Part shown: piece by piece, positions 13,329 through 61,839 of the stretch
How positions within the stretch are numbered: the first letter of the stretch is position 1
How the letters are laid out: every line of letters starts with the position of its first letter
Assembly (NCBI GenBank): GCA_050952725.1
Contig: JBMNLN010000001.1
Location: 752,108 to 816,107, forward strand
DNA from: Bacilli bacterium
Lineage (GTDB): Bacteria > Bacillota_I > Bacilli_A > RFN20 > CAG-826
Reading direction: 5' to 3'
Length of the DNA: 64,000 nucleotides
The notes under the pieces: model-generated
Told to the model about the DNA's origin: nothing
What the model saw: only the letters and a program-made list of their open reading frames with translations
Database searches by the model: none
Position numbers and translations under genes: made by a program

Positions 13329-14161
13329 AGCCAAAACGCGAACTGCTCAAAGTGCTGCTAGGACGAGGATTGATTCTCTTCGTCTTGCTTTTGATGTACG
13401 CCCCGATTATCGTCTTGATGGTTTTCTCCTTTACCGAATCGACCAATGTCGGAACTTGGAATGGTTTCTCGTTTCAACTCTATCTCGACTTATTTAAAAA
13501 TAAGGTGATTATGCGCGCTTTGTTCAATACGCTTCTCGTCGCTGTAGTAAGTGGTGTGGTCTCGACGATTTTGGGGACTTTAGGGGCGGTTGGAGCCTTT
13601 TATATGTCGAAAAAGGGGCGGAAGTTAGTCGAAGGTTTAACCCAAATCCCGATTATTAACGCTGAAATTGTCATGGCGATTTCCTTAGCGGTTTTATTCG
13701 TCGCCTTCAGTGCGAAGTTTAACTTCCTCACCTTACTGATCGGCCATGTGGTCTTGACTGTCGCTTTTGTCTATCTTTCGGTTAAACCAAAACTGGTACA
13801 GATGGATCCGAGTATTTATGAAGCTGCGCTCGATTTAGGGGCCACCCCGCGGGTGGCGATGCGGAAAGTGATTTTCCCCGAGGTTTTACCGGGGATTATC
13901 TCCGGCTTTATGCTGGCCTTTACCTTATCTTTAGATGACTTCATTATCACCTTTTTCCTCAGGGATAATTCTTTCGATACGATTTCGACTTATGTCCAAG
14001 GTGTCATCGCCAAAAGTGCCATCCCCCCGGCTCTGCGCGCGTTAACAACAATTATTTTTGGATTGGCCTTAATTGTCCTTTTTGTCAACAACTGGCGCAC
14101 GAAGAAAGAAGAACAATTAAAAGCCTTCCATCATGGGAAAGGAACGGTGAATGCCCAATGA
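13322..14161 (+). CDS. potC: Spermidine/putrescine ABC transporter permease PotC.
   Basis: It has a transmembrane-helix profile and the loop EAALDLGATPRVAMRKVIFP. It overlaps potB. Confidence 0.8.
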   Translation: MVKPKRELLKVLLGRGLILFVLLLMYAPIIVLMVFSFTESTNVGTWNGFSFQLYLDLFKNKVIMRALFNTLLVAVVSGVVSTILGTLGAVGAFYMSKKGRKLVEGLTQIPIINAEIVMAISLAVLFVAFSAKFNFLTLLIGHVVLTVAFVYLSVKPKLVQMDPSIYEAALDLGATPRVAMRKVIFPEVLPGIISGFMLAFTLSLDDFIITFFLRDNSFDTISTYVQGVIAKSAIPPALRALTTIIFGLALIVLFVNNWRTKKEEQLKAFHHGKGTVNAQ

Positions 14162-15645
14162 AAAAGTTTGTAACCATTGCTTTAGCGACTCTGCTTTTAG
14201 GTGGAGCCGCCCTCCCGAGTTTGCAACAGACGAAAGTCGATGCGGCCAGCGAAAAGAAAACCTTGCGCATCTATAACTGGGAAGACTATATCTATGAACC
14301 TGAAAGCGCTGATGAACAGCCATCGATTATCGATCAGTTTATCGCCTTTAAAGCCGAAGCCGGAGTAGATGTAACCGTCGTCTATGATACTTTTGCCACC
14401 AATGAAGATATGTACAATATCATGAAACTAGGCAAATCTTCATATGACTTAATCGCCCCCAGTGACTACATGATTCAAAAGATGGCGTTCGAGGGGATGT
14501 TAGAAAAATACGAATATGACGCCGCGACCCAAACCTATGCGAATATTCCCAATTACAACACCTACGCGTCGAAGTATTTAAAAGACATCTATGATGAGAT
14601 TGAAGTCTCCGAATACGCGGTTGGTTATATGTGGGGGACTTTAGGGATCGTCTATAACCCCAATCTCCCCGATGGCCGCCTCGATGCTCAGATGATGGAA
14701 GATGTCAAAAGTTGGACCGTGCTCTGGGATGAAAAATACAAAGGCAAAATCTCGATTAAAGACTCGATGCGCGATGCGTATGTGGTCGGATTACTCTATG
14801 TCCATAAGGAGACGATTGAAACTCTACAAGCTACATTAGCCGCGGGAAGTATCACCGAAGTTGCCTTTAAAGAAAGAATGGCGGAACTCTTAAACGATAC
14901 GACCCCAGAGACGGTGGAAAAAGTCTCGCAAGCCTTAAAAGAACTCAAGAAGAATATCTATGGTCTGGAAGTCGATAGCGGCAAAAACGATATCGTCACC
15001 GGCAAGATCACGATGAATACCGCCTGGAGTGGCGATGCCGTCTATGCGATGGATATCGCCGAGGAAGAAGAAGGAGTCGAACTCTATTACTCGATTCCCG
15101 ATGAAGGGGCGAATATCTGGTTTGATGGCTGGGTGATGCCCAAAGGGGCGGATAAAGAACTCGCGGCTGATTTCTTAAACTTCATCTCCAATCCCGAAAT
15201 CGCCGCTTTAAATATGGATTATATCGGCTATACCTCCTTTATCGCGGGGCAAGAAGTCCTCAGCCTCATCCATGATTGGTATGATGCCGAAGCAGGGGGA
15301 ACGATGGTCGATTTAACCTATTTCTTTGAGGGGACGGTCGATGTTGATCCTGAAGACCCTGCGACTTCGATGATCATCTATTCCGATTTAGTCAACCGCC
15401 AATTAACCGCTCAATATCCTTCCGAAGAAGAGATTCTCCGCTGTGTGATCATGGAGCATTTCGACAATGAAACCAATAACCGCATCGTCGAGATGTGGGC
15501 TGATTTTAAAGCGACGACGATTGCCGCGTGGATGATCGTTTTAATCGTCTTATTGGTCTTAGGGGGAGGCGGCTATCTCGTCTTTGAAATCCAAAGACGG
15601 AAAAAATCCAAGCGCCATGCGCGAAAAGCGGCGAAATCCTCATAA
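14158..15645 (+). CDS. potD: Polyamine-binding protein PotD with a signal peptide and an unusual C-terminal transmembrane anchor.
   Basis: There is a 4-nt ATGA overlap with potC. It has the N-terminal LRIYNWEDYI motif of the PotD/PotF family. The C-terminus is TTIAAWMIVLIVLLVLGGGGYLVFEIQRRKKSKRHARKAAKSS. Confidence 0.75.
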   Translation: MKKFVTIALATLLLGGAALPSLQQTKVDAASEKKTLRIYNWEDYIYEPESADEQPSIIDQFIAFKAEAGVDVTVVYDTFATNEDMYNIMKLGKSSYDLIAPSDYMIQKMAFEGMLEKYEYDAATQTYANIPNYNTYASKYLKDIYDEIEVSEYAVGYMWGTLGIVYNPNLPDGRLDAQMMEDVKSWTVLWDEKYKGKISIKDSMRDAYVVGLLYVHKETIETLQATLAAGSITEVAFKERMAELLNDTTPETVEKVSQALKELKKNIYGLEVDSGKNDIVTGKITMNTAWSGDAVYAMDIAEEEEGVELYYSIPDEGANIWFDGWVMPKGADKELAADFLNFISNPEIAALNMDYIGYTSFIAGQEVLSLIHDWYDAEAGGTMVDLTYFFEGTVDVDPEDPATSMIIYSDLVNRQLTAQYPSEEEILRCVIMEHFDNETNNRIVEMWADFKATTIAAWMIVLIVLLVLGGGGYLVFEIQRRKKSKRHARKAAKSS

Positions 15646-18244: not shown

Positions 18245-18319
18245 GGTTCCTTAGCCAAGTTGGTAAGGCAACTGACTGCAACTCAGTGACCGCCGGTTCA
18301 AATCCGGCAGGAACCTCCA
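18245..18319 (+). tRNA. tRNA-Cys (anticodon GCA).
   Basis: GGTTCCTTAGCCAAGTTGGTAAGGCAACTGACTGCAACTCAGTGACCGCCGGTTCAAATCCGGCAGGAACCTCCA. The anticodon loop is CTGCAAC. Confidence 0.9.
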
Positions 18320-18475
18320 ACGATAGGATTTGAACTTGATTGAGTTAAATATAAGAAGGCGTCTTTTTTAAACTAATTAATTGATTTTTATTAATGTTGA
18401 TTAATGAATTAAGGCTCTACTCGTAAAACTCTTGATTTTTTTTAGTTTTTCGAGTAGGATTTGTTTAAGGAAAAT

Positions 18476-19693
18476 ATGATGATAAAAAGAGACTATTATT
18501 TGAATAAACTCATATACTACAAAGATAAAGATTTAATTAAGGTAATAACTGGTATCAGAAGGGTTGGAAAATCTTTTTTGCTTTTTAATTTGTATTATGA
18601 TTACTTAATTAAATCAGGAATTAATCAATCCAATATTATAAAAATAAATCTTGAATCAGATAAAATGAAAACTTTAAGAGACCCAGTAGAATTGTCTAAA
18701 TATGTTAATTCTAAAATTAATAGTAATGATAAATATTATTTATTGATTGATGAAATTCAACATGTTAATGATTTTGAAGATGTGATTAATGGGCTAAGAG
18801 TGGATCTTAATGTTGATATCTATTTGACTGGTTCGAATTCGAAACTACTCTCTAGTGATATTAACACTAAGTTAAGAGGAAGAAGTATTGAAATTAAATT
18901 ATATCCGTTATCTTTTTTTGAGTATCACAATTATTATCAAGGAGATCTTGATGATGATTTCAAGGAATATCTTTTATATGGGGGATTACCATATTTAATC
19001 AATGAAGATGATAGCAATGGGAAAATAGCATATCTAAAGATGATTAATGAAACTGTAGTGATAAAAGATATAGTAGAAAGACATAAGATTAGAAACCCGC
19101 ATTTTTTTAATGCTGTATATGAGTTTTTGTGTTCAAATATCGGTTCATATGTCAGTGCTTATAAAATCGCTAACACATTAAAAAGCAATGGCTATAAAAC
19201 TATAACCAGTGATACTGTCAGCAATTACTTAGAGTTTTTAACTAATGCTTATTTGTTTTACAAAGTAAATCGCTATGATGTTAAAGGAAAAGCATATTTA
19301 AAAACTCAAAATAAGTATTATGCATCAGATATTGGGATGCGAAATGCCAAGATTAATTATCGGCAACTAGAAATAACCCATACATTGGAAAACATTATTT
19401 ATTTAGAACTCTTAAGAAGAGGTTACATTGTTGATATTGGGAAAAATTATAATAGTGAAATTGATTTTATCGCGAAAAATAAGCAAGATACTTATTATCT
19501 TCAAGTCAGTTACACAATAAATGACCCTAATATAAAAGAGCGCGAACTAAAAGCCTTTAAAAATTTAGCGGATGGTTATAAGAAAATTGTTTTAACAATG
19601 GATAAAGATCCATATCTTCATTTAGAAAATGGATATAAAAAGGTTAATATAATTGACTTTTTATTAAAAGAAGACATTTTAGAATTGATATAA
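18476..19693 (+). CDS. AAA_14/DUF4143-family ATPase (archaeal-ATPase-like ATP-binding protein).
   Basis: It has a Walker A motif (GIRRVGKSFLL) and a Walker B motif (YLLIDEIQ). The arrangement ...LTGSNSKLL... with a C-terminal DUF4143-like region is typical of this family. The true ATG is at 18476; the track start at 18461 is TTG. Confidence 0.6.
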   Translation: MMIKRDYYLNKLIYYKDKDLIKVITGIRRVGKSFLLFNLYYDYLIKSGINQSNIIKINLESDKMKTLRDPVELSKYVNSKINSNDKYYLLIDEIQHVNDFEDVINGLRVDLNVDIYLTGSNSKLLSSDINTKLRGRSIEIKLYPLSFFEYHNYYQGDLDDDFKEYLLYGGLPYLINEDDSNGKIAYLKMINETVVIKDIVERHKIRNPHFFNAVYEFLCSNIGSYVSAYKIANTLKSNGYKTITSDTVSNYLEFLTNAYLFYKVNRYDVKGKAYLKTQNKYYASDIGMRNAKINYRQLEITHTLENIIYLELLRRGYIVDIGKNYNSEIDFIAKNKQDTYYLQVSYTINDPNIKERELKAFKNLADGYKKIVLTMDKDPYLHLENGYKKVNIIDFLLKEDILELI

Positions 19694-20150
19694 ATTAAAA
19701 ATATTAAACAAAATTCCAATTAATTGCCAAAAAGTTCAATAGAAGTAGTTTTTCATTTTAAATTCTTCCATATTTGATTTCATTAAACATTTTTCGCGTC
19801 TGAGCTTTCATTCCCTAGGTATTAAGCACATCACAATCTGCTTTATTAATTGAGAATGAGATTTTAGGATAAGTGGTTAAATCTAATTTATCTTCAATGA
19901 TTCCTTTTTCCACGACAGACTTTGATGGTGGCTTTCATGGTATTTGCACAAAATTACATCAAATGTTTCTGGGTTTTGTGCTAGTTAAGCATGGTAGTGT
20001 CTCCTTTCTCAGTGTACTTACTAGAATTGTAGACTGCCTTTTTTGTTTGTTACCTACAAATGTGAAACGGTATCAGAAAAAATATTGAAATTATTTTTAT
20101 ACTTTTTGTGATAACATTTTGGTATAAGACAAAAGCAAAGGTGTTTGTTT

Positions 20151-21032
20151 ATGATTAAAAGAGTAGTCGATTTTACTGGTAATCAAACAATAAGATTTAT
20201 TAAAGAATTGTATGAATGCTTTGATACTGGTTATGCATTTGAGGATTTTGTAAAGGTTTATTTAGAATTCTTGGGGTTTGATGAAGTTGTAGTTACGCAA
20301 AGAGCAAAGGATGGTGGTATTGATTTAACAGCAATCAAAATTGGTATTGGAGGGCTTTCTTCCGAAAAAGGAAAAATAAACTACGAGCCAGATAAAGTAA
20401 TCTATCGAATTCAAGCCAAAAGATATAAACCAACAGGTAAAAAGATACCAATAGATGATATTCGAAAATTTAGAGGGGCAGCAGGATTTAAAAGCGGGCA
20501 AAAAGGGATATTTATAACAACTGGTAAATTTACTTCTGATGCAATTAAAGAAGCTAATGCGAAGCCAGAACAACCCATTATTTTAATTGATGGAGAAACC
20601 TTGATTAAAAGCATGCTAGATTTAAATTTAGGTTTTGTATTTATTCCAGAATTTAAGAAGGAGTTAATCAATAATTTATTGCAAAAAAAGAATATTATTT
20701 TATCAACATCGGAATATGGAAGTGAAAAAAGAAGAGACAATTTTATATCTGTTGATAAACTAATTAGTCTAAACGATATTAGGGCAAGAATAATTGGCGT
20801 TCCTCAAGAAATAATCAATGCTTTAGATGATGACTTTGATAAAATCGAAATTCAAATGGGAGATTTATCCACTAAGGAGTATAGCTACAATAAAAATCGC
20901 AAATATATTGCAGGTGTGACAAAATTCTTTAAAAAATACGGATTGATTGATGATGCTAATGTTTATCATCCTAAAAAAGTTAATTGGATGAAAGAAGGTT
21001 CAAATATCAAGATAACTATTTTAGAAGAATAA
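20151..21032 (+). CDS. Mrr-like (Mrr_cat) restriction endonuclease domain protein.
   Basis: FEDFVKVYLEFLGF ... QRAKDGGIDLTA ... IQAKRYK ... GIFITTGKFTSDA ... IILIDGETL matches the Mrr catalytic-domain pattern (D...(D/E)xK, QxK). The ATG is at 20151 with an AAGGTG RBS. Confidence 0.6.
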   Translation: MIKRVVDFTGNQTIRFIKELYECFDTGYAFEDFVKVYLEFLGFDEVVVTQRAKDGGIDLTAIKIGIGGLSSEKGKINYEPDKVIYRIQAKRYKPTGKKIPIDDIRKFRGAAGFKSGQKGIFITTGKFTSDAIKEANAKPEQPIILIDGETLIKSMLDLNLGFVFIPEFKKELINNLLQKKNIILSTSEYGSEKRRDNFISVDKLISLNDIRARIIGVPQEIINALDDDFDKIEIQMGDLSTKEYSYNKNRKYIAGVTKFFKKYGLIDDANVYHPKKVNWMKEGSNIKITILEE

Positions 21033-21907
21033 GTTTTCTGTAAAGGGTTTGTAAAAATATTACCTTAAAATAACTTCAGCAAATAGAATGATACAATTGA
21101 AGATGTTTATATATCACATGAAAACAATTTAGATAAATTGCTGATTCATGAAGTTTTTAGGCAAATTTCGATTAGGATTTTCAAATGTATCTACTCACAA
21201 ATAGCAAAATGCCGCTTAATTATAATGGCAATTATTCAAAGATACGCAAATGTCATTTATAATATCGACAAATATTGAGGATATGAATTTTTTGAGGTTG
21301 ATGTTTAAAAAGACAACTTTTAACAGAAAAACGTAATATTTTTTGGTCACGACTTGGTTCTAAAATAAAGAAGATTAGTCGTCTAAAGCATTGAATACTT
21401 TCGGAATTATAATCATATTTCCAAACTGGGAAAAGAAATCTTAAAAATTATAAAGAACGGTCGTTATGTCTTGAGTTGTTTGTCTATGCTCACATGAGAA
21501 ACTGAGCGCGATAAACCAGATAGTCTATAAAAAATGCAATTGGTGCAAAAATGGGCCACAATGAAATAAAAGGACTCTATATTCAAAAAGTCGAAATCGT
21601 TTTAAAAAATAACCCAATCTTAACCACAGCCATTTTAGACAATAATATTTGGTAAAAACAATACATAGGCAGGAAAGAAATCGGCTTTCCGCGGCTATCC
21701 AATGTTTTTTAAAGAGACATGATACATTTTCATTGGCTGTAAACCAGTATTTTTTGTATTATAAAGTTATAATTTCAATTTATTGGTTCAAATAAGATAG
21801 GGAAGTATGATTTTGTAAGAAATAAAACATATTATTCAGTTATCCGTGCAATCTAAAAACATACATAAGACTTGCATTTATTAAAAGCAAAGAAATGGAG
21901 GAATATT

Positions 21908-24199
21908 ATGACCACGTGGGATGAGTTAGTTTCAGGTGAAGAACTAGATAAAGTTTCCAAATCGAGAAGAATAAAATATAAAGAGATAAAAGTTGAAAAA
22001 GAATCAATTGCTGAGCACGAAAAAAAAGGTTGGAAAATATTTCGAAGATATAAAGATGGCTCTGCTAAAATGCGAGCCCCAAAAGAGATTGGCGATGCCT
22101 TCGAAGATGAAGTATGGACGATTTTTTATGATATGGGCTTTGAGATTATGAACAAGTCTAATGGTTTCAAATTGTCTTATTCTAAAGGAAATCCAGATTT
22201 AACTAAGCAAATCGATGTTATAGCCATTGATGACGAAGTAATACTATTAGTTGAATGTAAAGCTGCTGATAAGCCAGATACAACAGGAAATTGGAAAAAA
22301 GAACTAGAGTCCATACAAGGCTTTTTTCCGGGTTTGTGCAAAGAAATAAGACAAAAATATAAGAACAGAAAAGTAAAATATATACTAGCTACTAAGAATT
22401 ACCTTATAGGTGAGCAAGATAACAAAAGAATGGAAGAATTCAAAATCGCCAATTTTAACCATGAAGTGGTAACGTATTATGCGGAACTTGTGAAACATCT
22501 AGGCTCTGCCGCTAGATATCAGCTTCTAGGTAATCTATTTGCTAAACAACGCGTTGAAAACATGATAAAAAAAATTCCTGCTATTGAAGGAAGAATGGGG
22601 GGCTTGAAATATTATACATTTTTGATTGAGCCTGAAAAACTTTTAAAAATCTCCTACATTTTACATCGAAGCAAAGCAAATCATAAAATGATGCCAACTT
22701 ATCAAAGGTTGATCAAAAAGGATAGATTAAAGGCAATACGAAAATTTGTTAATGAGGGAGGATATTTTCCAAATTCGATAATTGTATCTATTGATACTGT
22801 TAGAAAAGAGCCAAGATTCGAGTTATTAACTTCCAAATTAGATAACAACAATAATTCGCGAGCGGGTTATCTATATTTGCCAGGGTTTTATCAATCGGTT
22901 TATATAATTGATGGTCAGCATAGGCTATATGGATATTCGGATACTAAATATGCAAACAATAATACAATTCCTGTGGTTGCGTTTTTAAATTTGAGCAAAA
23001 ATGAACAAGTTAAATTGTTTATGGACATTAATCAAAATCAAAAATCCGTTTCGAAGAGTCTCAGAAACACACTCAATGTCGATCTTTTATGGGATTCTGA
23101 AGATGCAAACGAAAGAAAGTTAGCCTTAATGTTAGGGCTTGCTCAATCATTGGGTGAAGATCCAACTTCTCCATTGTTTCAAAGAATTATCACAGGAGAG
23201 GATAAAATTACAGAAAAAAGATGTATTACAATCGATTATATTAAAGAAGCCGTTGCAAATTCATCTTTTTTAAATATTTACAAAAAGGGAAAAAATGAAA
23301 TAATTCAACACGGCACCTTCGATAAAGATGATAATGACAGAACATTAGACTTTCTACTTTCATTTTTAAAAAAAAGTTTAAAACTAATGTCTGAATTCCT
23401 ACAAGAGGAATGGGAAAAGGGAAGTTCTGGATATATAACTATTAATAACACGATGTATGGAATCATTAAAATCATTGATGACATCGTAAATATGACTTTG
23501 AAAAAAGAAAAAAAACAAATTGTTGATAACGCAGATGAGTTCTATAAAAAGTGTGAGCCATTACTTTATAAATTTATAGAAACACTATCATCTCTTGATT
23601 CTGATTCAGTTAAGACAATCAAGGAAGCCAAAGGCGGTGCTGCTAAGAAAATATCTTGGCGCACACTACAAGTTGCGTTTTACAAAAAAGAACCTTGTTT
23701 TACCAACCCTGAATTAGAGCAATATATAATCGAAAATTGCACTGATAATAACCCAGATGCTTCTGAGTATTTATTTCAGATTGAGATGTACTTGAAGGGG
23801 CATTTTAAAGAACAACTAGAAAAAAATAATGACTGGATGAACAATATGATACCTGAATCGTTGACCAATCAACTAATATCCAAAAAAGCAATTGAAGAAA
23901 ATAATAGAAAAAAAATGGATAATTATACAGAAGTAGATGTTTGGGATTTTATTTCCTTTGATGAAATCAAACAGATTGCGACTTATAAAACAAATTGGTC
24001 GGATTTTTGCTCGACAATATTATCTTCTTCAAAAATCAAATCCACTAAAGTTGATGCGATTACATGGCTAAGTTCCTTCTCGAGATACAAATCCAAAATC
24101 ACGACAGAAAAGAATATTTTAACAAGCGAACTAAAGGATATTCGTGATATTTATAATATGTTTTTCTTAAATCAGATTGGAGATGAGAAAAAAACATGA
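21908..24199 (+). CDS. DGQHR-domain (DndB-like, ParB/Srx fold) protein fused to an N-terminal PD-(D/E)xK nuclease-like domain.
   Basis: The YIIDGQHRLYGYSD motif sits in a ParB-like region (FPNSIIVSID...). The N-terminal segment IDVIAIDDEVILLVECKAADK looks like a PD-(D/E)xK motif. A GGAGG RBS lies 7 nt upstream of the ATG at 21908. The stop overlaps the MTase start. Confidence 0.65.
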   Translation: MTTWDELVSGEELDKVSKSRRIKYKEIKVEKESIAEHEKKGWKIFRRYKDGSAKMRAPKEIGDAFEDEVWTIFYDMGFEIMNKSNGFKLSYSKGNPDLTKQIDVIAIDDEVILLVECKAADKPDTTGNWKKELESIQGFFPGLCKEIRQKYKNRKVKYILATKNYLIGEQDNKRMEEFKIANFNHEVVTYYAELVKHLGSAARYQLLGNLFAKQRVENMIKKIPAIEGRMGGLKYYTFLIEPEKLLKISYILHRSKANHKMMPTYQRLIKKDRLKAIRKFVNEGGYFPNSIIVSIDTVRKEPRFELLTSKLDNNNNSRAGYLYLPGFYQSVYIIDGQHRLYGYSDTKYANNNTIPVVAFLNLSKNEQVKLFMDINQNQKSVSKSLRNTLNVDLLWDSEDANERKLALMLGLAQSLGEDPTSPLFQRIITGEDKITEKRCITIDYIKEAVANSSFLNIYKKGKNEIIQHGTFDKDDNDRTLDFLLSFLKKSLKLMSEFLQEEWEKGSSGYITINNTMYGIIKIIDDIVNMTLKKEKKQIVDNADEFYKKCEPLLYKFIETLSSLDSDSVKTIKEAKGGAAKKISWRTLQVAFYKKEPCFTNPELEQYIIENCTDNNPDASEYLFQIEMYLKGHFKEQLEKNNDWMNNMIPESLTNQLISKKAIEENNRKKMDNYTEVDVWDFISFDEIKQIATYKTNWSDFCSTILSSSKIKSTKVDAITWLSSFSRYKSKITTEKNILTSELKDIRDIYNMFFLNQIGDEKKT

Positions 24200-25035
24200 A
24201 ACCTGTTTTAAAATGGGCAGGAGGAAAAAGATTACTAATTCCAGAAATTGCTAAATACATAAATAAACAAAAAATGGAAGAAAAAGGTCATCGATATTTT
24301 GAGCCTTTTGTCGGTGGTGGTGCTGTTTGTTTTCATTTAAAAATAAAAGATTCAGTGATAAATGACATTAATACGGAATTAATAAATGTATACACACAAA
24401 TTAGAGATAATCCAACAGAATTAATTAAAAAATTGAAAGAACACAAAAATAAATACAGTTCTGAATATTATGAAAAGATTAGAGTTTTGGACAGAGAACC
24501 TGACTTTTCCTCAAAACCTGCCGTATTAAGAGCGGCAAGATTTATCTTTTTAAATAAAACCTGTTATAACGGATTATATAGAGTTAATTCATTCGGACAT
24601 TTTAATGTTCCTGAAGGTAAATATAAAAATCCTGATATCGTTTCGGAAAACAATATAAAAAAACTTAGCAAATTTTTAAATGAAAAAAATATCTCTATCA
24701 GAAATGTTGATTTTGAAGAGAGTGTAAGAGATGCAAAGGCGGGCGATGTTGTCTATTTTGATCCTCCTTATGACTATGAATATGAAGGTTTTAATGGATA
24801 TAATGTTGATGCTTTTGATCGAGAAAATTTAAAGAGATTAAAACGAGTCGCGGACGATTTAACTAATCGTGGATGCAAAGTTATTATTAGTAATAACAAT
24901 ACTAAGTTTGTCAATGACTTGTTTGACTCAGAAAATTATACAATTGAATATGTGGAAGCCAATAGATTTATTAATTGTGACGGTAAAGGAAGAAAGAAAG
25001 TAAGAGAGGTTATTATTTATGGAGAAAAAAAATAA
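24196..25035 (+). CDS. Dam-family (D12 class) DNA N6-adenine methyltransferase.
   Basis: LKWAGGKRLL (motif X), FEPFVGGGAV (motif I) and YFDPPYD (motif IV, DPPY) are present. There is an ATGA overlap with the upstream gene. Confidence 0.8.
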   Translation: MKPVLKWAGGKRLLIPEIAKYINKQKMEEKGHRYFEPFVGGGAVCFHLKIKDSVINDINTELINVYTQIRDNPTELIKKLKEHKNKYSSEYYEKIRVLDREPDFSSKPAVLRAARFIFLNKTCYNGLYRVNSFGHFNVPEGKYKNPDIVSENNIKKLSKFLNEKNISIRNVDFEESVRDAKAGDVVYFDPPYDYEYEGFNGYNVDAFDRENLKRLKRVADDLTNRGCKVIISNNNTKFVNDLFDSENYTIEYVEANRFINCDGKGRKKVREVIIYGEKK

Positions 25036-25477
25036 AATTCCCTTTCCACAGGCTAATGATTTTGAAAAAGTCATCATGATATTAAATATTAATAATGAGG
25101 CCAATTTGAAAAAAAAATCTGTTATTTCAATGATTTTGGGAGATGTTGAATATAGACAAGTACAATATTACGTTTCTGCGTTAATATATTTGGGATTAGC
25201 AACAAAAGAAAAAACTTTTTCTGAAAAAGGGAAATATATTCGGACACTAGGTTATTCGGAGCAAATAATAGAGTTAGCAAAGCTTATTGTTTCAAAAGAT
25301 GTGTTTGGCACAGCCTATTTTACGGAACAATTTTTAAAAATTAAACTTGATGTTGATGATGTTGTCCAAATAATGAAAATATATGTTGACTTTGATAGTA
25401 ATTCAACATACAAGCGCCGAGCCCAAACCGTAATAAGTTGGTTAGAGTGGATTAATAATAAAAAGAAAGATTTATGA
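25019..25477 (+). CDS. Hypothetical small protein of 152 aa in the island.
   Basis: The ORF overlaps the MTase 3' end by 17 nt and is AT-rich. No motif is recognised. Confidence 0.35.
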   Translation: MEKKNKIPFPQANDFEKVIMILNINNEANLKKKSVISMILGDVEYRQVQYYVSALIYLGLATKEKTFSEKGKYIRTLGYSEQIIELAKLIVSKDVFGTAYFTEQFLKIKLDVDDVVQIMKIYVDFDSNSTYKRRAQTVISWLEWINNKKKDL

Positions 25478-25602
25478 ATTAATTTCTTAATCATTTTTTG
25501 AAAAAAGAAATTTTATTCTTTGGTGACACTAAGAAAAGAGTTGGTAATCCATTTATTATCTTGAAAAAGTCGCCTCCAAGTTATATATTGTATAAGCGTG
25601 TT

Positions 25603-25679
25603 GCGCCGATAGCTCAACTGGATAGAGTGCCAGACTACGAATCTGGAGGTTGCGAGTTCGATTCTTGCTCGGCGCGCCA
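25603..25679 (+). tRNA. tRNA-Arg (anticodon ACG).
   Basis: GCGCCGATAGCTCAACTGGATAGAGTGCCAGACTACGAATCTGG...TCGGCGCGCCA. Confidence 0.9.
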
Positions 25680-25689
25680 TGACTTTTTC

Positions 25690-25765
<76 letters not shown>

Positions 25766-25820
25766 TGATTGTTCTCAACCTTTCCCCTTGATCTTATCCT
25801 AATATCAAATGGGAATTCTC

Positions 25821-25896
25821 GGGGCCATAGTTCAGTTGGGAGAACGCCTGCTTTGCAAGCAGGAGGTCAGGGGTTCGAGCCCCCTTGGCTCCACCA
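25821..25896 (+). tRNA. tRNA-Ala (anticodon TGC).
   Basis: GGGGCCATAGTTCAGTTGGGAGAACGCCTGCTTTGCAAGCAGG...GGCTCCACCA, with a G3:U70-type acceptor. Confidence 0.9.
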
Positions 25897-25903
25897 GTAA
25901 GAT

Positions 25904-25978
25904 GGCTGTGTAGCTCAGCGGTAGAGCGTCCGGTTCATACCCGGCAGGTCGGCGGTTCAAATCCGCCCGCAGCTACCA
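25904..25978 (+). tRNA. tRNA-Met, elongator (anticodon CAT).
   Basis: GGCTGTGTAGCTCAGCGGTAGAGCGTCCGGTTCATACCCGG... closely resembles Bacillus elongator tRNA-Met. Confidence 0.8.
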
Positions 25979-26079
25979 TGGAAACGAAATAGTCGCTGTT
26001 GATCCAGTGACTTTTTTGTTGCTTAGGGTAGGTATTTGTTTAAATAAATATCTATTTAATGTATTATATTTATGCTTGT

Positions 26080-26155
26080 GGACCCTTAGCTCAATGGTTA
26101 GAGCGACCGGCTCATAACCGGTTGGTTTCGGGTTCAAGTCCTGAAGGGTCCACCA
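26080..26155 (+). tRNA. tRNA-Ile2 (CAT anticodon, lysidine-type), less likely Met.
   Basis: GGACCCTTAGCTCAATGGTTAGAGCGACCGGCTCATAACCGG...AGGGTCCACCA resembles ileX-type tRNA-Ile(LAU), which reads GGCCCCTTAGCTCAGTGGTTAGAGC...CTCATAA.... Confidence 0.7.
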
Positions 26156-26162
26156 TGCTTTT

Positions 26163-26253
26163 GGAAGCATACCCAAGTGGTTGAAGGGGTCGGTCTTGAA
26201 AACCGATAGGGGGTGTGAGCCCTGCTAGAGTTCGAATCTCTATGCTTCCGCCA
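26163..26253 (+). tRNA. tRNA-Ser (anticodon TGA).
   Basis: GGAAGCATACCCAAGTGGTTGAAGGGGTCGGTCTTGAAAACCGA... has a long variable arm. Confidence 0.9.
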
Positions 26254-26265
26254 TCAAGTCAATCG

Positions 26266-26300
26266 GGTTTGAATGATCAGTTCAAACCTTTTTTCTTTTT
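26266..26300 (+). terminator. Rho-independent terminator closing the tRNA cluster.
   Basis: GGTTTGAAtgatcagTTCAAACC is followed by TTTTTTCTTTTT. Confidence 0.5.
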
Positions 26301-26337
26301 AAGGGAAGAAGTAGAATCTTAATGCTATAATAAACCC

Positions 26338-26874
26338 ATGAAAATCTTAGGGAAATTCATCGACGATCAATATCCAAATAACGGACATGACTCTCTCCGC
26401 GTTAGTGCTCGCGCCGTAGTTTTAAATAATGAAGGCAAGATAGCTTTAACCCACATTCAAGCGGATGATAAGTTTGGTCACCGCGATTATTATGAACTTC
26501 CAGGCGGAGGTGTCAAACCAGGTGAAAGTGTTTATCAAGCAGTTCAACGAGAAATATTAGAAGAACTCGGAGTGAAAACGCGATTAATCGCTGAGATTGG
26601 CGAAGTCCATGATTTCTACAATCTGATTAAACAGGAGAACAGATCGCTTTATTTTCTTTTACAAGTTGGTGAATATTGCGATAGTCATCTTGAAGAAAGA
26701 GAATCCCATCTGATTAAAGAAATTATCTGGGTCAGTTTCGAAGAAGCGCTTGAGTTATATAAGAATATGCAAAATGTTTTAGTTGGTCGTCTTGTTCAAC
26801 AAAGAGAACTCCCAGTATTATTTGAGGCGGTAAATATCCTCAAAACCAAGCAAAACCTCGATGTTTTCGAATGA
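26338..26874 (+). CDS. NUDIX hydrolase.
   Basis: The Nudix box is ELPGGGVKPGESVYQAVQREILEELGV, that is GX5EX7REUXEEXGU. Confidence 0.8.
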   Translation: MKILGKFIDDQYPNNGHDSLRVSARAVVLNNEGKIALTHIQADDKFGHRDYYELPGGGVKPGESVYQAVQREILEELGVKTRLIAEIGEVHDFYNLIKQENRSLYFLLQVGEYCDSHLEERESHLIKEIIWVSFEEALELYKNMQNVLVGRLVQQRELPVLFEAVNILKTKQNLDVFE

Positions 26875-26949
26875 GCCTTCTATCTTGATTAATTTTAATT
26901 TGCTTTCTTTTGACTTTTCCAAGCTTTTTCAATACAATGTTGTAGCAAT

Positions 26950-27026
26950 GGCGGATGTGGTGAAGAGGTTAACACACCTGGCTGTGAACCAGGCATTCGT
27001 GGGTTCAAGTCCCATCATTCGCCCCA
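26950..27026 (+). tRNA. tRNA-His (anticodon GTG) with a genomically encoded G-1.
   Basis: G-GCGGATGTGGTGAAGAGGTTAACACACCTGGCTGTGAACCAGG...CATTCGC-C-CCA. The 8-bp acceptor stem with G-1:C73 is the hallmark of bacterial tRNA-His. Confidence 0.85.
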
Positions 27027-27037
27027 AAAAAGAGATC

Positions 27038-27066
27038 AATGGGCCTTGAGCCCATTTTTCTTTTTC
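27038..27066 (+). terminator. Rho-independent terminator after tRNA-His.
   Basis: AATGGGCcttgaGCCCATT is followed by TTTCTTTTT. Confidence 0.5.
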
Positions 27067-27367
27067 TAACCCTGGATGGTTTTGGACTATTTTTCATGAT
27101 TTCTCTTGCAAAACTTTGCCACACAAAACCATACTCCCTTACCATATGAAGGTGGGCTCTACTGTAAAATTAATTATTGCGAATATGTGTTGTATTTTTC
27201 AAATTGAAACATCAATTAAAATTTGAAAATGAAATAGCAGCACAATTTATTTTCTTAATTAGTTGATCAAATTCTCTGTCCCATTAAACGCATTGAAAAA
27301 GTTTATTGTAAATAATTATGCTCCTTAAAATTGGACGAAAAATTGGCGATATATTTAGGGAGCATTT

Positions 27368-28462
27368 TCAATCAGGGATGGCTTTCTCTGCCCATTCATA
27401 TCTTGCGCGATGATGGCTTTGATCCCTAGGTATTTTTTTATCTTTCATTAAACGGCTATAGACGATTGATGGTAAAACCTCGGCTTCTTGGGCCAACATC
27501 GCCATTGTCTGATCATTTATTTCATAGTTGCTGATATATTTTTGGTATATTTCGGGATTAATTAAAGTATCCTCAGCAAATTTATTCGCTCTTTTTTCAA
27601 ATTTCTTGCTGGTTTCTTCATCGAGATCATTCTGTAAGTAATCGCCAAAGATGATGTGACCAATTTCATGAAATAATGTAAACCAGAAAATATCGACAAA
27701 TTTATGTCTAAGCGTTAAGGCAATTAAGGGATTATCAGTCATGGTCTTCACGGTTAAACCATTAATTGGGGCTTTTTCAACATGTTTTTTTACGGTGAAA
27801 TAGACGCCGCAACTGTTCAATTCTTCTTGGATTAACCTGATGATTTTCTCCGGTTCTGCAAACATGATTCTTTTAATGTTCGGCAATCTCTTTTTAAGTC
27901 TTTCAAGGTCGAGAGCGGCTACATTTTGCGCATAGACTTCTTGCTCACATAAATATTGCCAAGTATACATGACAAGATGACTGGTTCCTTTGGCGAATTG
28001 GCGTCGATAAAGACCTTGATTGGCTAATTTTGTATGACTAATAGCAGTTAAGTTATTTACCCCCAGGATTTTTCGGAGTTCGTAAATAATTTCATCATAG
28101 AGTTTATCGCCAAATTTTTCTCCCGTAATATCCGCGACTGGTTTTTTAATTTCCCGTGCTATTTCGTGTTCTTCATCGCTGATTTGTTGACTTTGTTTCA
28201 GATAAAAAAGCTCTTTATCATAATTAGCTTGTAAGTTAATCCAAAAAGTATCACTACTATTTAAAGCGATTGCTAATTTTTGCGCAAATTCGTTGGTGAT
28301 ATTGCTCTTGCCGTTAATCACACTGGAAATATGTTTTTCGGTGACCGCAGCCCGAGTCGCTAATTCTTTTTGCGAATAGCCGCGTTCCGCGATGATTTCT
28401 GCTAAGATTTCTCCGGGATGAATTAACAAGTCAAGGGATGTATGTCGTCGTTTTTCCACCAT
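27368..28462 (-). CDS. higA: HigA-like antitoxin: an XRE-family HTH domain fused to an ImmA/IrrE-family (M78) zinc metallopeptidase domain.
   Basis: The N-terminal HTH is ...GYSQKELATRAAVTEKHISSVINGK.... The C-terminal HExxH motif is FTLFHEIGHIIFGD. It overlaps the upstream higB-like gene by 32 nt. Confidence 0.65.
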   Translation of the reverse strand: MVEKRRHTSLDLLIHPGEILAEIIAERGYSQKELATRAAVTEKHISSVINGKSNITNEFAQKLAIALNSSDTFWINLQANYDKELFYLKQSQQISDEEHEIAREIKKPVADITGEKFGDKLYDEIIYELRKILGVNNLTAISHTKLANQGLYRRQFAKGTSHLVMYTWQYLCEQEVYAQNVAALDLERLKKRLPNIKRIMFAEPEKIIRLIQEELNSCGVYFTVKKHVEKAPINGLTVKTMTDNPLIALTLRHKFVDIFWFTLFHEIGHIIFGDYLQNDLDEETSKKFEKRANKFAEDTLINPEIYQKYISNYEINDQTMAMLAQEAEVLPSIVYSRLMKDKKIPRDQSHHRARYEWAEKAIPD

Positions 28463-28784
28463 GGTAATCTTCCACTCCTTTGATAATTACTTTGTCACAT
28501 TGAGCGAAAGCGATAAGGCTTACGTCTCCATTTTCCGTCATTGGTTGTAGGATTAATCTTTTGTTCTTGTCGACACTAACCGCGAATAATCCTTTTTTAT
28601 CGCCTTTTAATGCATGAGGATTCCCCGGGGCTATTTTTAGGAATTCCGCAAAACTGATTGCTGCTTTGAGCACATCATATCTCATTTTTATTCTTCGCGT
28701 TATTTCAATGCCCTTTTTTCTCTTCATTAATTCAAAGTTTTCAAATAATAATGCTACTCTTCTATCATCATAGACGATTTCCAC
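28431..28784 (-). CDS. higB: HigB-like (RelE/ParE superfamily) toxin.
   Basis: ...IAPGNPHALKGDKKGLFAVSVDKNKRLILQP...VIIKGVEDYH matches the HigB killer-protein consensus (PGN..E.LKGDRKG...R.I.......I..V.DYH). The GTG start has a GAAGG RBS. Gene order is toxin first, then antitoxin. Confidence 0.65.
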   Translation of the reverse strand: MEIVYDDRRVALLFENFELMKRKKGIEITRRIKMRYDVLKAAISFAEFLKIAPGNPHALKGDKKGLFAVSVDKNKRLILQPMTENGDVSLIAFAQCDKVIIKGVEDYHGGKTTTYIP

Positions 28785-28797
28785 GTCGGCCTTCTTT

Positions 28798-28875
28798 CTT
28801 ACCGATTTGGTAACTGCCTATATTATAACGCAATTAGTGAATATTTAAAGAAAAAAGTTACCGATTTGGTAACTG
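28798..28875. promoter_or_regulatory. Two copies, 59 bp apart, of a palindromic operator-like element cTTACCgatttGGTAActg in the higBA promoter region, divergent from the Na/Pi transporter gene.
   Basis: Exact 18-19 bp direct repeats lie at 28798-28816 and 28857-28875. Each contains the inverted repeat GTTACC-N5-GGTAAC. They are located 14-90 bp upstream of the higB start. Confidence 0.5.
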
Positions 28876-29077
28876 ATCGTTTTTTCGCTGCATTTGATCA
28901 TATGCCCATCAATCGACAATCATTATTGAACAATAAAAAGAAGCAGTTCACTTTTAAATTACATAAGTGGTTTAACACTGATTTGACTACCAAAGATTTT
29001 ACAGAAATGTCATTTTTGATTACAATTACTTTACAATTGCAAATTTCGCTTAATTACGCTTATGGAAGGTATCCATC

Positions 29078-30733
29078 ATGAATCACGAATTAGTCAAAGC
29101 CATCATCTATTTGCTCGTCGGGGTCGCCATTCTCTTAATTGGGATGAGGATGATGTCCGCTGGATTTCGCAAATCAATTGGGAAAAGAATTCGCGGCTTT
29201 TTTAAACGCACTCAGGATAAAGCCTGGCTCAATCTGGGCATCGGAACTGCGGTCACCGCTGCAATTCAATCCAGTGATGCGACTAACGCGATGGTGGTGG
29301 GGTTTATTAACACCGGGGCAATGAGTGTCTATCAGGGGCTCTGCATCATGCTTGGCGCCTATATCGGCACGACGGTGACCGGAGTCATCGCTTCCTTTTC
29401 TTCCTTGAGCATCTCGATTTATTTCCTATTATTGGTTTTTATCGGGACGGTGATGATGGTCTTTTTCCAAAAGGATATGGTGAATAATATCGGCGAAATC
29501 CTCGCGGGATTAGGTCTGTTATTCCTCGGTCTTGCCTTGATGAAAGACTCGTTTAAAAATCCCGATATCACCAATTTCACGAAAGGTTTATTCAGTTCGA
29601 TTAACTTTGGTCCTTTGCTCTTTTTAATCGGGGTGCTGGTCACCGCGATTATGGATTCAAGTAGTGCGGTTACTTCGATTGTGATCGCCATGGTCGGAAG
29701 TGGGGCGATTGAATTATCTTCGGGTTTATTCATCGTTTTAGGCGCGACTTTAGGAACGGTGGTCACCACCTTAATCGTCGCGATTGGGGGGCATGTCAAC
29801 GGTAAGCGCGCCGCCTGGATTGCTTTTTCCTTACGGACGCTTTCCTCAGTGGTGATGGTTTTGCTTCTTACCATTTTTAGAACCCCGATCACCACTGGGC
29901 TTTCGACCTTTGCCGCTGCGACTAGTCCCGAACTGGCCGTCGCGATTTTTACCGTGGTCTATAACGTGATTTTTATGCCGGCCTTACTGCCATTGGTGAA
30001 GCCTTCGATTAAACTCTTTGAACGGATTATCAAAGAAAAACCAAGCAGCGCGATGGATGGAGTGCTCAAACACATCGAAGATAAGATGCTGGCCTTCCCC
30101 CATATTGCCACCGCGCAGGTGGAAAAAGAGATTATCAATATGTATCTTCTCGCCTTTGCCAATTATCGCCGCAGTGTGGCGATGATCTTAACCAAGAACT
30201 TTGAGGAAGCCCCAACCCTTTTAGAAGTGGAAGACCAAGTTGACTATCTCAATGAGAAGATTACCACCTTCTTAATAAAACTCTCGAGTAAAGAACAACC
30301 TGAATCCGAGCGCAAAGCTGGCTCTTTTTTCCATGTGGTTAATGATATTGAACGGATCGCCGACCACGCGGTCAATATCTACTTAATGGCGAAAGAACTC
30401 GAAGAAAAAGAATTGGCATTCTCCGAACTCGCTAAATCCGAAATCGAGAGTTTAAATGACATCATCTTGCAGATGTTTACCTTAACCAAGACGATTATTG
30501 AAAAGAGCGATTATGCTTCTTTAGTCACATTGCATGGCTTAGAAGAACAAGCGGATAGTTATAAATCCCGCTATTTTAACAATCATTATGAACGGATTAA
30601 AAACAAGAGTTGTGTCTTTGAATTATCGCCTTTCTATTCCAGTTTATTAACCGACTTAGAACGGATTTCGGACCATATCAATAACATCGGTTTCTCCATC
30701 GTTAACCCCATCGGGGTCGATGAATATGATTGA
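29078..30733 (+). CDS. Na+/phosphate cotransporter (NptA/YjbB family) with C-terminal PhoU-like domains.
   Basis: Duplicated QSSDATNAMVVGF / MDSSSAVTSIVIAMVGSG Na/Pi-cotransporter repeats are present. The C-terminal soluble region carries two PhoU-like repeats (IERIADHAVN... / LERISDHINN...). Confidence 0.75.
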   Translation: MNHELVKAIIYLLVGVAILLIGMRMMSAGFRKSIGKRIRGFFKRTQDKAWLNLGIGTAVTAAIQSSDATNAMVVGFINTGAMSVYQGLCIMLGAYIGTTVTGVIASFSSLSISIYFLLLVFIGTVMMVFFQKDMVNNIGEILAGLGLLFLGLALMKDSFKNPDITNFTKGLFSSINFGPLLFLIGVLVTAIMDSSSAVTSIVIAMVGSGAIELSSGLFIVLGATLGTVVTTLIVAIGGHVNGKRAAWIAFSLRTLSSVVMVLLLTIFRTPITTGLSTFAAATSPELAVAIFTVVYNVIFMPALLPLVKPSIKLFERIIKEKPSSAMDGVLKHIEDKMLAFPHIATAQVEKEIINMYLLAFANYRRSVAMILTKNFEEAPTLLEVEDQVDYLNEKITTFLIKLSSKEQPESERKAGSFFHVVNDIERIADHAVNIYLMAKELEEKELAFSELAKSEIESLNDIILQMFTLTKTIIEKSDYASLVTLHGLEEQADSYKSRYFNNHYERIKNKSCVFELSPFYSSLLTDLERISDHINNIGFSIVNPIGVDEYD

Positions 30734-60392: not shown

Positions 60393-60503
60393 TTTATATG
60401 TGCCTCGATTTTAGTATAGCACAACAATTATTAATAAAAACCTTTTAATTAAAAAATTAATCAAAAATTAATCTATATTTAATCAATTATTTATGCATTC
60501 GCT

Positions 60504-61493: not shown

Positions 61494-61839
61494 TGCGACT
61501 CCTCCATTTTAACTGTTTGCTTAGATTAAATTTTATGCATTAACTGAAATCTTATTCCCGGTAGTCATTCAATTAAGCTGCTGGTTGGAAATAATTATCA
61601 GGTCATTTTAGTGGGCTTTTTGTGTAAAAACGCAATTATTTTATCCCACAAGTTGATATTACTACAAATTAATTAAAAAGTTTATGCTAAAGTTAATTTA
61701 ATCTTTTTTAACTGCTAATTTCAATAAATTAACCGATAAATTAACCGTTTGGATATTGACAAAGTGCTTTTCCCGCCATAACATAAAATCAGTGAGGTGT
61801 GTTTATTTATATATATTAGACACAAAAGGAGAGAATAAT

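Follow-up and report, generated by a model that had tools for sequence, protein, structure and literature searches.

What occupies the sharply AT-rich segment between two transfer RNA (tRNA) loci of a Bacilli bacterium, where this DNA came from and what its genes might do are the questions raised by this locus. The segment, of about 7.2 kb, lies in a stretch of 64 000 nucleotides (nt) of contig JBMNLN010000001.1, which is called the window in what follows. It was read, with moderate confidence, as foreign DNA accumulated from position 18320 to about 25555 at a variable site between tRNA-Cys and a tRNA-Arg operon, and as carrying three independent defence modules, the third of which would be a restriction-modification (R-M)-like system. 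The island as such is an ordinary example of defence genes gathering at a variable tRNA-flanked site and adds little alone. The main interest is the third module, a very common and little-studied cassette of three genes. They encode a long protein of 763 amino acids (aa) with PD-(D/E)xK nuclease, DGQHR and HEPN-like domains, a Dam-family DNA methyltransferase and a small DUF7226 protein. The defence role of the island genes is a predicted one, drawn from homology and gene context.

The three genes are tightly packed on the same strand. The long gene overlaps the Dam gene by ATGA at 24196-24199, and the Dam gene overlaps the DUF7226 gene by 17 nt at 25019-25035; translation of the trio would be coupled. 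The same trio, in the order DGQHR > Dam > DUF7226, recurs in unrelated surroundings in Erysipelothrix, gut metagenomes, a Bacilli metagenome-assembled genome (MAG) and an Izemoplasmatales MAG. In gut metagenome loci it adjoins an integrase and a resolvase. Cassette homologues in general have a patchy distribution that takes in Erysipelothrix, Butyrivibrio, Izemoplasmatales and gut metagenomes, and their contexts are unrelated to one another.

Linkage between the long gene and methylases was surveyed in 80 metagenome loci, the open reading frames (ORFs) of which were scored by phmmer and by a hidden Markov model. Metagenomes and genomes together gave 74 distinct long DGQHR proteins. A Dam gene abutted the long gene on the same strand in 64 of the 74. 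The window's order, DGQHR > Dam, was found in eight of these 64, and all eight had DUF7226 downstream; the other 56 had the order Dam > DGQHR, with DUF7226 upstream of Dam in two. Among the ten exceptions, two had a divergent D12 methylase, one a frameshifted Dam and one an N6_N4 methylase fragment at the contig end; two adjoined DpnII-type systems, one was followed by a BglII nuclease and an MT-A70 methylase, and three had short flanks. BglII (AGATCT) and DpnII (GATC) are both GATC-family systems. Every locus of the 74 with both flanks fully available has a DNA methylase nearby. An adenine methylase accompanies the long protein in essentially every case, and such near-constant linkage is the pattern that would be expected of a toxic nuclease requiring a protective modification.

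Three parts were distinguished in the long protein. The N-terminal part (aa 1 to about 210) is a PD-(D/E)xK nuclease domain with a restriction-endonuclease fold and the triad D103/E116/K118; by sequence it is weakly NERD-like. The middle part (aa about 220-470) is a DGQHR ParB-fold NTP-binding domain (TIGR03187, 1.7e-46) with the motifs Q266-R267, D335-R339 and F371..N375. Its ParB/sulfiredoxin fold was recovered with scores of 7.5 for PadC, 7.2 for Pnob8 ParB-N, 6.5 for KorB and 5.7 for sulfiredoxin. The C-terminal part (aa 476-763) is a HEPN-like helical domain. A GGAGG sequence stands 8 nt upstream of the ATG at 21908. The longer 775-aa ORF with a TTG start was rejected as the product, as it is not on record by exact-protein look-up; the product is the 763-aa ATG form. 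The family is large: more than 3000 proteins were found at E<=1e-5 in a word-indexed search, and the best 120 matches are near full-length, mostly of 720-810 aa.

Conservation was examined in 78 aligned sequences, the family members being 28-72 % identical to the window's protein. The QR, DGQHR and FxxxN motifs are invariant in all 78; they are the defining motifs of DGQHR domains (PMC4619093). The PD-(D/E)xK signature (E66, D103, D108, E116-C-K118) is intact in 52, and eight more deviate at K118 alone, which is replaced by R or T. A DndB-like ParB-fold protein has been reported to bind ATP and GTP (bioRxiv 10.1101/2025.10.10.680097).

From these data the following working scheme is proposed for the cassette. 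The DpnM-like Dam would mark the host DNA, most likely at GATC. The 763-aa protein would be the effector, its N-terminal PD-(D/E)xK domain cutting DNA. The DGQHR ParB-fold domain would engage DNA, bind and hydrolyse NTP, and license the nuclease according to the methylation state. The trigger could be either a lack of methylation, the signal of classical R-M, or priming by methylated self DNA, as in SspE. In being licensed by NTP hydrolysis, the nuclease would follow a recognise-hydrolyse-activate logic like that of SspE and GmrSD. In SspE, the host phosphorothioate mark is recognised, GTP is hydrolysed by the ParB-like domain and the HNH nuclease is then licensed (PMC13251355).

A gut clade of the family (L036, L065, L068, L070-L074, L077-L079 and L082) has an eroded nuclease triad, with G or S at 103, L, S or T at 116 and H at 118. 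In this clade a 534-aa gene with NERD and superfamily 1 (SF1) helicase-like domains overlaps the start of Dam. The operon (e.g. L078:2-13158) also holds, upstream, a 552-aa Helicase_C protein and a 636-aa protein without assignment and, downstream, a 1122-aa PLD-ResIII-helicase-DUF3427 protein followed by Wadjet JetA. Because the clade has this NERD-helicase gene overlapping Dam, the data suggest that sensing or switching falls to the invariant DGQHR core, with the nuclease as an effector that can be exchanged.

The same clade bears on another explanation, in which the long DGQHR protein is a DndB-like, NTP-dependent DNA-binding regulator or helper of the methylase and its nuclease-fold domain serves for DNA binding only. 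DndB has been reported as an ATP-modulated repressor of dnd (PMC4507180; PMC10853773) and not as a nuclease, which speaks for a regulator and against an effector that cuts. DpdB-type DGQHR proteins are reported to belong to a modification machinery (PMC10164549), and the clade with the eroded triad retains its linkage to Dam. That clade, however, encodes a replacement NERD nuclease-helicase in overlap, and the E..D..ExK signature, intact in most sequences and departing at the final lysine only in eight others, is a sign that catalysis is under selection. Complete DpnII or BglII R-M systems in the place of its own Dam would also be unexpected neighbours for a methylase regulator, and the protein, with its added nuclease domain, is double DndB in size. 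A purely regulatory role was therefore considered quite unlikely.

The architecture of the long protein raised a further explanation. A ParB-like NTPase joined to a nuclease is the architecture of GmrSD and SspE (PMC4619093; PMC13251355), and an Mrr-type enzyme is also present in the island. The long protein could thus be a modification-dependent type IV enzyme like GmrSD, BrxU and SspE, directed against modified phage DNA, and Dam a separate orphan or anti-restriction methylase that is no more than a travelling companion. The linkage data point the other way. Reading frames that overlap with Dam, in two gene orders and in 64 of 74 homologues, go far beyond hitch-hiking, and loci that have no Dam carry a different adenine methylase or an R-M system of the GATC family next to the long gene. 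Type IV enzymes typically have no cognate methylase, which also counts against this explanation. It was judged very improbable, and the long protein was retained as the putative restriction arm of an R-M-like system.

Dam is of the D12 class and its FxGxG (FEPFVGGG) and DPPY motifs were read from the translation. Its nearest solved relative is DpnM (2dpm, 3e-65), with E. coli Dam behind (4e-30). As DpnM is the methylase of DpnII and acts on GATC, this sequence is the likeliest site.

The third protein is all-helical and was modelled by AlphaFold2 with a predicted local distance difference test (pLDDT) score of 93. A DUF7226 profile search gave 1314 proteins at E<=0.001. The domain occurs either alone or fused, at the C-terminus of D12 methyltransferases, with HsdM_N and in DUF6996-DUF6997 proteins. 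This distribution would fit an accessory module of Dam-type systems that can be placed on either partner. Here DUF7226 might be an accessory of the methylase, acting in DNA binding or as an adaptor, which would be dispensable in the sister order Dam > DGQHR. The PADLOC REase_II model PDLC03513 matches the 152-aa protein over profile positions 274-423 of 426 only, which is the non-catalytic DUF7226 tail. PADLOC-type pipelines may therefore call a false complete type II R-M system (MTase_II and REase_II) at this locus and overlook the nuclease candidate upstream.

Two-gene pairs made of Dam and a protein of about 425 aa with DUF6996-DUF6997-DUF7226 domains were observed on many Bacillota plasmids, for example on a Megamonas plasmid (L018, NZ_CP048628.1 41949-44049), on an E. 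faecium plasmid (L019) and in the matches H22 and H23. The second gene of these pairs is annotated as 'hypothetical protein' or, on Mammaliicoccus and Staphylococcus plasmids, as 'translation elongation factor', an apparent misannotation. Its product corresponds to the same PADLOC model, PDLC03513.

Distant full-length homologues of the long protein, with 27-34 % identity, were found on Novosphingobium plasmid pNL1 (L016, NC_009426.1 118850-125348), on Agrobacterium plasmids (L017, from Agrobacterium sp. S7/73) and on Rhizobium plasmids. Instead of Dam, their neighbours are genes for a radical-SAM enzyme, a GHKL (HATPase_c_3) ATPase and a short protein resembling DndB, and the genes come in two arrangements. 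On viral or prophage contigs, a homologue of the distant type is followed by a radical-SAM gene (L104) or by Dam (L105 and L106). The radical-SAM/DndB-like/GHKL set may be an uncharacterised DNA-modification module, and the long protein would then behave as a common restriction arm joined to alternative modification modules. If the proposed scheme holds, the distant homologues would point to a possibly new radical-SAM-dependent DNA modification. A wider proposal is put forward tentatively, as one that may well prove wrong. Proteins of about 760 aa with PD-(D/E)xK, DGQHR and HEPN-like domains would form a distinct and widespread class of restriction effectors, in which a ParB-fold NTPase reads the modification and activates the nuclease. 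Their modification modules would be exchangeable, with N6-methyladenine made by Dam in Bacillota and a possibly novel modification made by the short DndB, radical-SAM and GHKL proteins in Alphaproteobacteria and some prophages. The methylase and nuclease partners of Dam-type systems would have DUF7226 in common as a new accessory domain.

The features of the locus are collected in the following table.

Table 1. Features of the tRNA-Cys/tRNA-Arg interval, in window coordinates
Feature	Position	Strand	Basis
tRNA-Cys (GCA), left anchor	18245..18319	+	ARAGORN, Rfam
AT-rich inserted segment, about 7.2 kb	18320..25555	no strand	GC profile, GC3, dinucleotide signature
AAA_14 ATPase + DUF4143 (PD-(D/E)xK-type domain), single-gene module	18479..19693	+	Pfam, PADLOC PDC-S01
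ORF-poor AT-rich gap (457 bp) with unsupported 71-aa ORF at 19873-20088	19694..20150		domain scans
Mrr-type restriction nuclease, PDC-S02-like / type IV-like	20151..21032	+	Pfam Mrr_cat, PADLOC
AT-rich non-coding stretch (875 bp) upstream of the operon	21033..21907		domain scans
763-aa PD-(D/E)xK + DGQHR + HEPN-like protein, putative restriction arm	21908..24199	+	NCBIfam TIGR03187 1.7e-46; weak Pfam NERD match
Dam-family (D12 class) N6-adenine DNA methyltransferase	24196..25035	+	Pfam 6.9e-59; TIGR00571 260 bits vs cutoff 115
DUF7226 protein, 152 aa, all-helical	25019..25477	+	Pfam DUF7226 3.1e-21
Native tRNA-operon promoter TTGAAA-17-TATATT	25561..25589	+	conserved in relative L014
tRNA-Arg, Pro, Ala, Met(CAT), Met(CAT), Ser operon, right anchor	25603..26253	+	ARAGORN, Rfam; order kept in relatives L014 and L015

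A reading of the letters alone (the sequence-only reading) had placed an AT-rich island of about 7 kb between tRNA-Cys and a six-tRNA cluster, and sliding-window GC content, ARAGORN and Rfam agree with it. The GC content of the island is 29.2 %, against 43.7 % in the remaining window, so that a uniform profile, which would have spoken against an island, was not obtained. In the sliding windows it was 42-47 % until 18250, 25-34 % across 18250-25500 and 49 % at the tRNA cluster. Windows of 500 nt had a mean GC fraction of 0.436 (standard deviation 0.037) outside and of 0.294 inside, where the maximum was 0.346. In windows of 100 nt there was one step per edge, a fall from 0.52 to 0.24 at 18320 and a rise from 0.20 to 0.44 at 25555. 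The abrupt change that had been described is thus sharp at both edges, but it departs from a background of about 44 % and not 46 %. The AT-skewed codon use was also borne out: GC content at third codon positions (GC3) is 0.19-0.27 in the five island genes and 0.43-0.54 in host genes on both flanks. The dinucleotide-signature distance between the island and the rest of the window is 90.9, while size-matched host chunks gave a mean of 31 and a maximum of 52.5.

These values are hard to reconcile with the low-GC block being native ancestral DNA that was never acquired. The corresponding spacer of a relative (L014, described below) is AT-rich too, which would suit native DNA. GC3 and the signature distance set the block apart from the host, its gene content is wholly unlike that of the relative, and the cassette homologues are scattered across unrelated taxa and contexts. 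A native origin was considered hardly tenable. The closest relatives of the cassette (72 % and 68 % identical) are on contigs of 27-31 % GC, one of which is from an Izemoplasmatales genome.

The sequence-only reading had listed an AAA_14/DUF4143 ATPase, an Mrr-like nuclease, a DGQHR-nuclease fusion, a Dam methylase and a small ORF, all on one strand. Pfam, NCBIfam and PADLOC confirmed this list and identified the small ORF as DUF7226; each of the five genes, all on the + strand, has a match to a defence-type model. Six ORFs had been counted. Five are credible genes, and the sixth, of 71 aa, is matched by nothing in Pfam, PADLOC or NCBIfam. Starts at TTG or ATG had been given; the TTG starts are an artefact of taking the longest ORF, and public gene calls place ATG starts at 18479, 20151 and 21908 (products of 404, 293 and 763 aa). 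That the DGQHR, Dam and small ORFs form one conserved operon, the most interesting content of the island, had been missed.

The same site was then compared in relatives, the gene that flanks the island and encodes a flavoprotein being used as a guide. An identical flavoprotein is on record on two contigs, and JBJSVX010033571.1 (609 kb, GCA_046128275.1) has the window's gene order. Identity is 60 % for the best homologue, 53 % and 47 % for those after it and 40 % for the closest one that lies on a long contig (L014, GCA_035326105.1). In the reference-genome collection, a scan for the pattern of the flanking flavoprotein gave no true relatives and an exact 75-nt tRNA-Cys probe had no match, the lineage being unrepresented there. 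The lineage appears to be isolated and poorly sampled.

The L014 contig retains the window's block of ABC transporter, binding protein and flavoprotein genes, followed by tRNA-Cys, tRNA-Arg/Pro/Ala/Met/Met/Ser, a NUDIX gene and tRNA-His; the tRNA-His of the window is at 26951 (ARAGORN, Rfam). The distance from tRNA-Cys to tRNA-Arg is 1.57 kb in L014 (L014:13645-15214) and in L015, whose flanking gene is 40 % identical as well. The DNA in between differs from that of the window in both, and the gene content of the interval is entirely unlike. The L014 spacer is AT-rich, with 29-33 % GC against 42-47 %. Because L014 keeps the tRNA order with a different cargo, the order appears to be ancestral and the Cys-Arg space to be a site of variable AT-rich cargo. 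The spacer of L014 holds a 189-aa ORF at 14071-14640 with no match to a Pfam family.

In the relative with the 60 % identical flavoprotein, tRNA-Cys (L010) is 100 % identical to that of the window and similarity ends exactly after the CCA. The last base common to relatives is this CCA end, and the island begins at the next base. All contigs of this species that reach the tRNA (L010, L011 and L012; Logan ERR6184536, ERR6175507 and ERR6170130) end 47 nt past tRNA-Cys, and its longest contig was seen in at least 20 samples. The recurrent break suggests that content is strain-variable at this place in that species too. The right edge of the insert was placed between 25478, after the DUF7226 stop codon (25477), and about 25555, because the tRNA-operon promoter is conserved between the window genome and L014. 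That the segment is a defence island acquired horizontally at a tRNA hotspot, as the sequence-only reading had it, is thus supported by composition, by gene models and by the different cargo of L014. The comparison with relatives proposed in that reading gave the same tRNA-Cys/Arg order in L014, but no empty site in a close relative.

As the island starts at the first base past the CCA of tRNA-Cys, it could be a decayed integrase-bearing element (a prophage, an integrative and conjugative element or an integrative island) that entered at the 3' end of this tRNA and later lost its integrase and attachment (att) sites. Dead genes of such an element could account for the two ORF-free stretches (457 and 875 bp), and the integrase and resolvase that adjoin the cassette in gut metagenome loci would fit as well. 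The sequence-only reading had seen no integrase and no clear att repeat, and the searches gave the same result: neither the ORFs nor the gaps, translated in six frames, hold an integrase, recombinase, transposase or other mobility domain, and there is no direct repeat of at least 12 nt flanking the island and no repeat of the tRNA 3' end. The CCTCCAA motif that had been reported as shared between the two edges is a chance match, with nine copies in the window against 8.3 expected; its second copy is at 25573-25579, not 25586-25592, and sits in the spacer of the native tRNA-operon promoter. Pseudogene remnants were not found in either stretch by a six-frame Pfam scan at E<=1. A recombination hotspot would account just as well for the different AT-rich cargo of the relative. 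Viral contigs seldom carry the cassette: 2.9 million of them gave 10 matches, about five of which are full-length, and GenBank phages gave four weak ones; a phage origin of the cassette was considered and is unlikely. A decayed element was judged unlikely for the segment as a whole, though it keeps some weight. Accumulation of separate defence modules at a variable site is the reading preferred here.

Several points weigh against this reading, or against its R-M-like part. The 763-aa protein has no match to any PADLOC REase_I-IV model and matches DpdB and DndB weakly. About 15 % of the family members are without the nuclease triad and yet keep the linkage to Dam, so that nuclease activity is not universally required. 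The target of Dam is probably GATC, with similarity to DpnM as the sole basis. GATC is about two-fold under-represented in 18330-25600 (8 observed, 18.6 expected from base composition), and the counts in the host flanks match expectation (77 observed and 69 expected in one, 133 and 133 in the other). Taken together, these counts neither support nor exclude GATC restriction and were judged non-diagnostic. Foldseek matches of the DUF7226 model to winged-helix and winged helix-turn-helix regulators are weak and all non-significant, so that a winged-helix assignment would be only a hint. A truly empty site was not found in any close relative of this sparsely sampled lineage. A sequence search of solved structures in the PDB gave no match for the 763-aa protein or for the DUF7226 protein.

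The other two modules of the island are single genes, and PADLOC matched a PDC-S01 and a PDC-S02-like candidate in them. The first would be a single-gene module combining an ATPase with a PD-(D/E)xK domain. Its protein has Pfam matches to AAA_14 (3.6e-33) and DUF4143 (4.8e-16), and its match to PADLOC PDC-S01 (1.9e-141) is full-length, running from residue 4 to 404 of 410 in the protein and from position 4 to 409 of 412 in the profile. PDC-S01 has been put forward as a candidate, not yet validated, in which an ATPase is combined with a PD-(D/E)xK domain, and PDC-S01 and PDC-S02 are both abundant PADLOC candidates without experimental validation (PMC12988326). The second module is an Mrr-type nuclease, presumably dependent on DNA modification. 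Its catalytic domain is N-terminal (Mrr_cat, 6.8e-24, aa 29-157) and is followed by a C-terminal part of about 130 aa without family. The matches to PADLOC PDC-S02 (1.3e-19) and mREase_IV (1.2e-10) are both via the catalytic part only; aa 31-158 align to profile positions 189-301 of 324 of PDC-S02, and the domain order differs. This order is the reverse of that of the PDC-S02 and Mrr models, in which the catalytic domain is C-terminal.

The Mrr-like and AAA_14 genes were considered as parts of the cassette and rejected, Mrr-like homologues being near the cassette in two of 74 loci and AAA_14 in none of the 74. Linkage of the Mrr-type gene to the cassette is occasional and not core. A clear Mrr-type homologue (5e-45) lies directly upstream of a D12 methylase-DGQHR pair at L058:4031-4912, and a weak one downstream of a DGQHR/Dam/DUF7226 trio at L039:4361-5260.

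The two stretches between the modules gave few further signals. In the closest relatives of the cassette (L100:1695-1892 and L008:5807-5998) the long gene is overlapped at its start by an HTH_3 gene of 63-65 aa, which resembles that of an R-M controller (C) protein; no such gene was found in the window's 875-bp stretch by tblastn with the HTH proteins of these two loci. Comparison of the upstream DNA of relatives with the window gaps by blastn gave no convincing match. An Rfam scan at E<=1 returned tRNAs and sub-threshold noise only. Promoter and terminator scans gave counts equal to the shuffled expectation and are uninformative in AT-rich DNA.

Other observations were made around the island. 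Both CAT tRNAs of the right-hand operon (25904-25978 and 26080-26155) are tRNA-Met by ARAGORN, one of them having been given as tRNA-Ile by the sequence-only reading; one of the two may be a lysidine-modified tRNA-Ile2 or an initiator tRNA. GC content is moderately low (34-39 %) at 26250-29250, and a second such stretch lies at 60001-62000 (35.5 %). The first holds the NUDIX and tRNA-His genes, which are in synteny with L014 and therefore native. It also contains, at 27368-28462 on the - strand, a gene with HTH_3 and peptidase M78 (ImmA/IrrE-like) domains.

The cassette can be set beside known systems. ParB-like (COG1479/DGQHR) domains were noted in 2013 as fused to nucleases and linked to R-M (PMC3632139). 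In the literature searched, DUF7226 and DUF6997 were unmentioned, and the papers that mention DGQHR do not treat a cassette of Dam and PD-(D/E)xK-DGQHR, with or without DUF7226; nor is it covered by the 2024 reappraisal of Dnd (PMC10853773). The cassette would thus be an R-M-like system with a ParB-fold NTPase-nuclease effector for which no published description was found.

The tRNA-adjacent islands share with the present one a foreign composition, a start at the tRNA 3' end, defence cargo and a site content that appears to vary between relatives. The window's island differs in having no integrase, att site or mobility genes, and in lying between two tRNA loci without duplication of a tRNA end.

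Like type II R-M systems of the DpnII/MboI kind, the cassette couples a D12-class methylase, nearest to DpnM, to a protein with a PD-(D/E)xK fold. It likewise occurs sporadically and is mobile, and in some relatives a small HTH_3 gene of controller type lies upstream. Unlike in the DpnII family, to whose PADLOC model it has no similarity, the putative nuclease is 763 aa long and carries an invariant DGQHR ParB-fold domain and a HEPN-like domain. A requirement for NTP, if real, would put the cassette nearer to type I, type III and type ISP than to type IIP.

DndB and DpdB have the DGQHR motifs in common with the long protein, to which the cassette adds a nuclease domain of about 210 aa and a methylase partner. 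The long protein is far below the equivalog cutoffs (29.9 against 328 for DndB, 64.2 against 300 for DpdB and 90 against 450 for DGQHR_dnd_1), and no dndCDE or dpdA/dpdC partners were found in the island with Pfam.

SspE, GmrSD and BrxU have in common with the cassette a ParB/sulfiredoxin-fold domain with homologous QR, DGQ(Q/H)R and FxxxN motifs, fused to a nuclease (PMC4619093). They are built from DUF262 and a C-terminal HNH/DUF1524 domain, neither of which was found in the long protein by Pfam (DndB and weak NERD matches only); the cassette has a domain of the DGQHR (DndB) type and an N-terminal PD-(D/E)xK domain. The partner modification is phosphorothioation for SspE and Dam methylation for the cassette, whereas GmrSD and BrxU are without a cognate modification enzyme. 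If the proposed scheme is true, the ParB-fold logic of recognition, hydrolysis and activation known from SspE and GmrSD would extend to ordinary Dam methylation.

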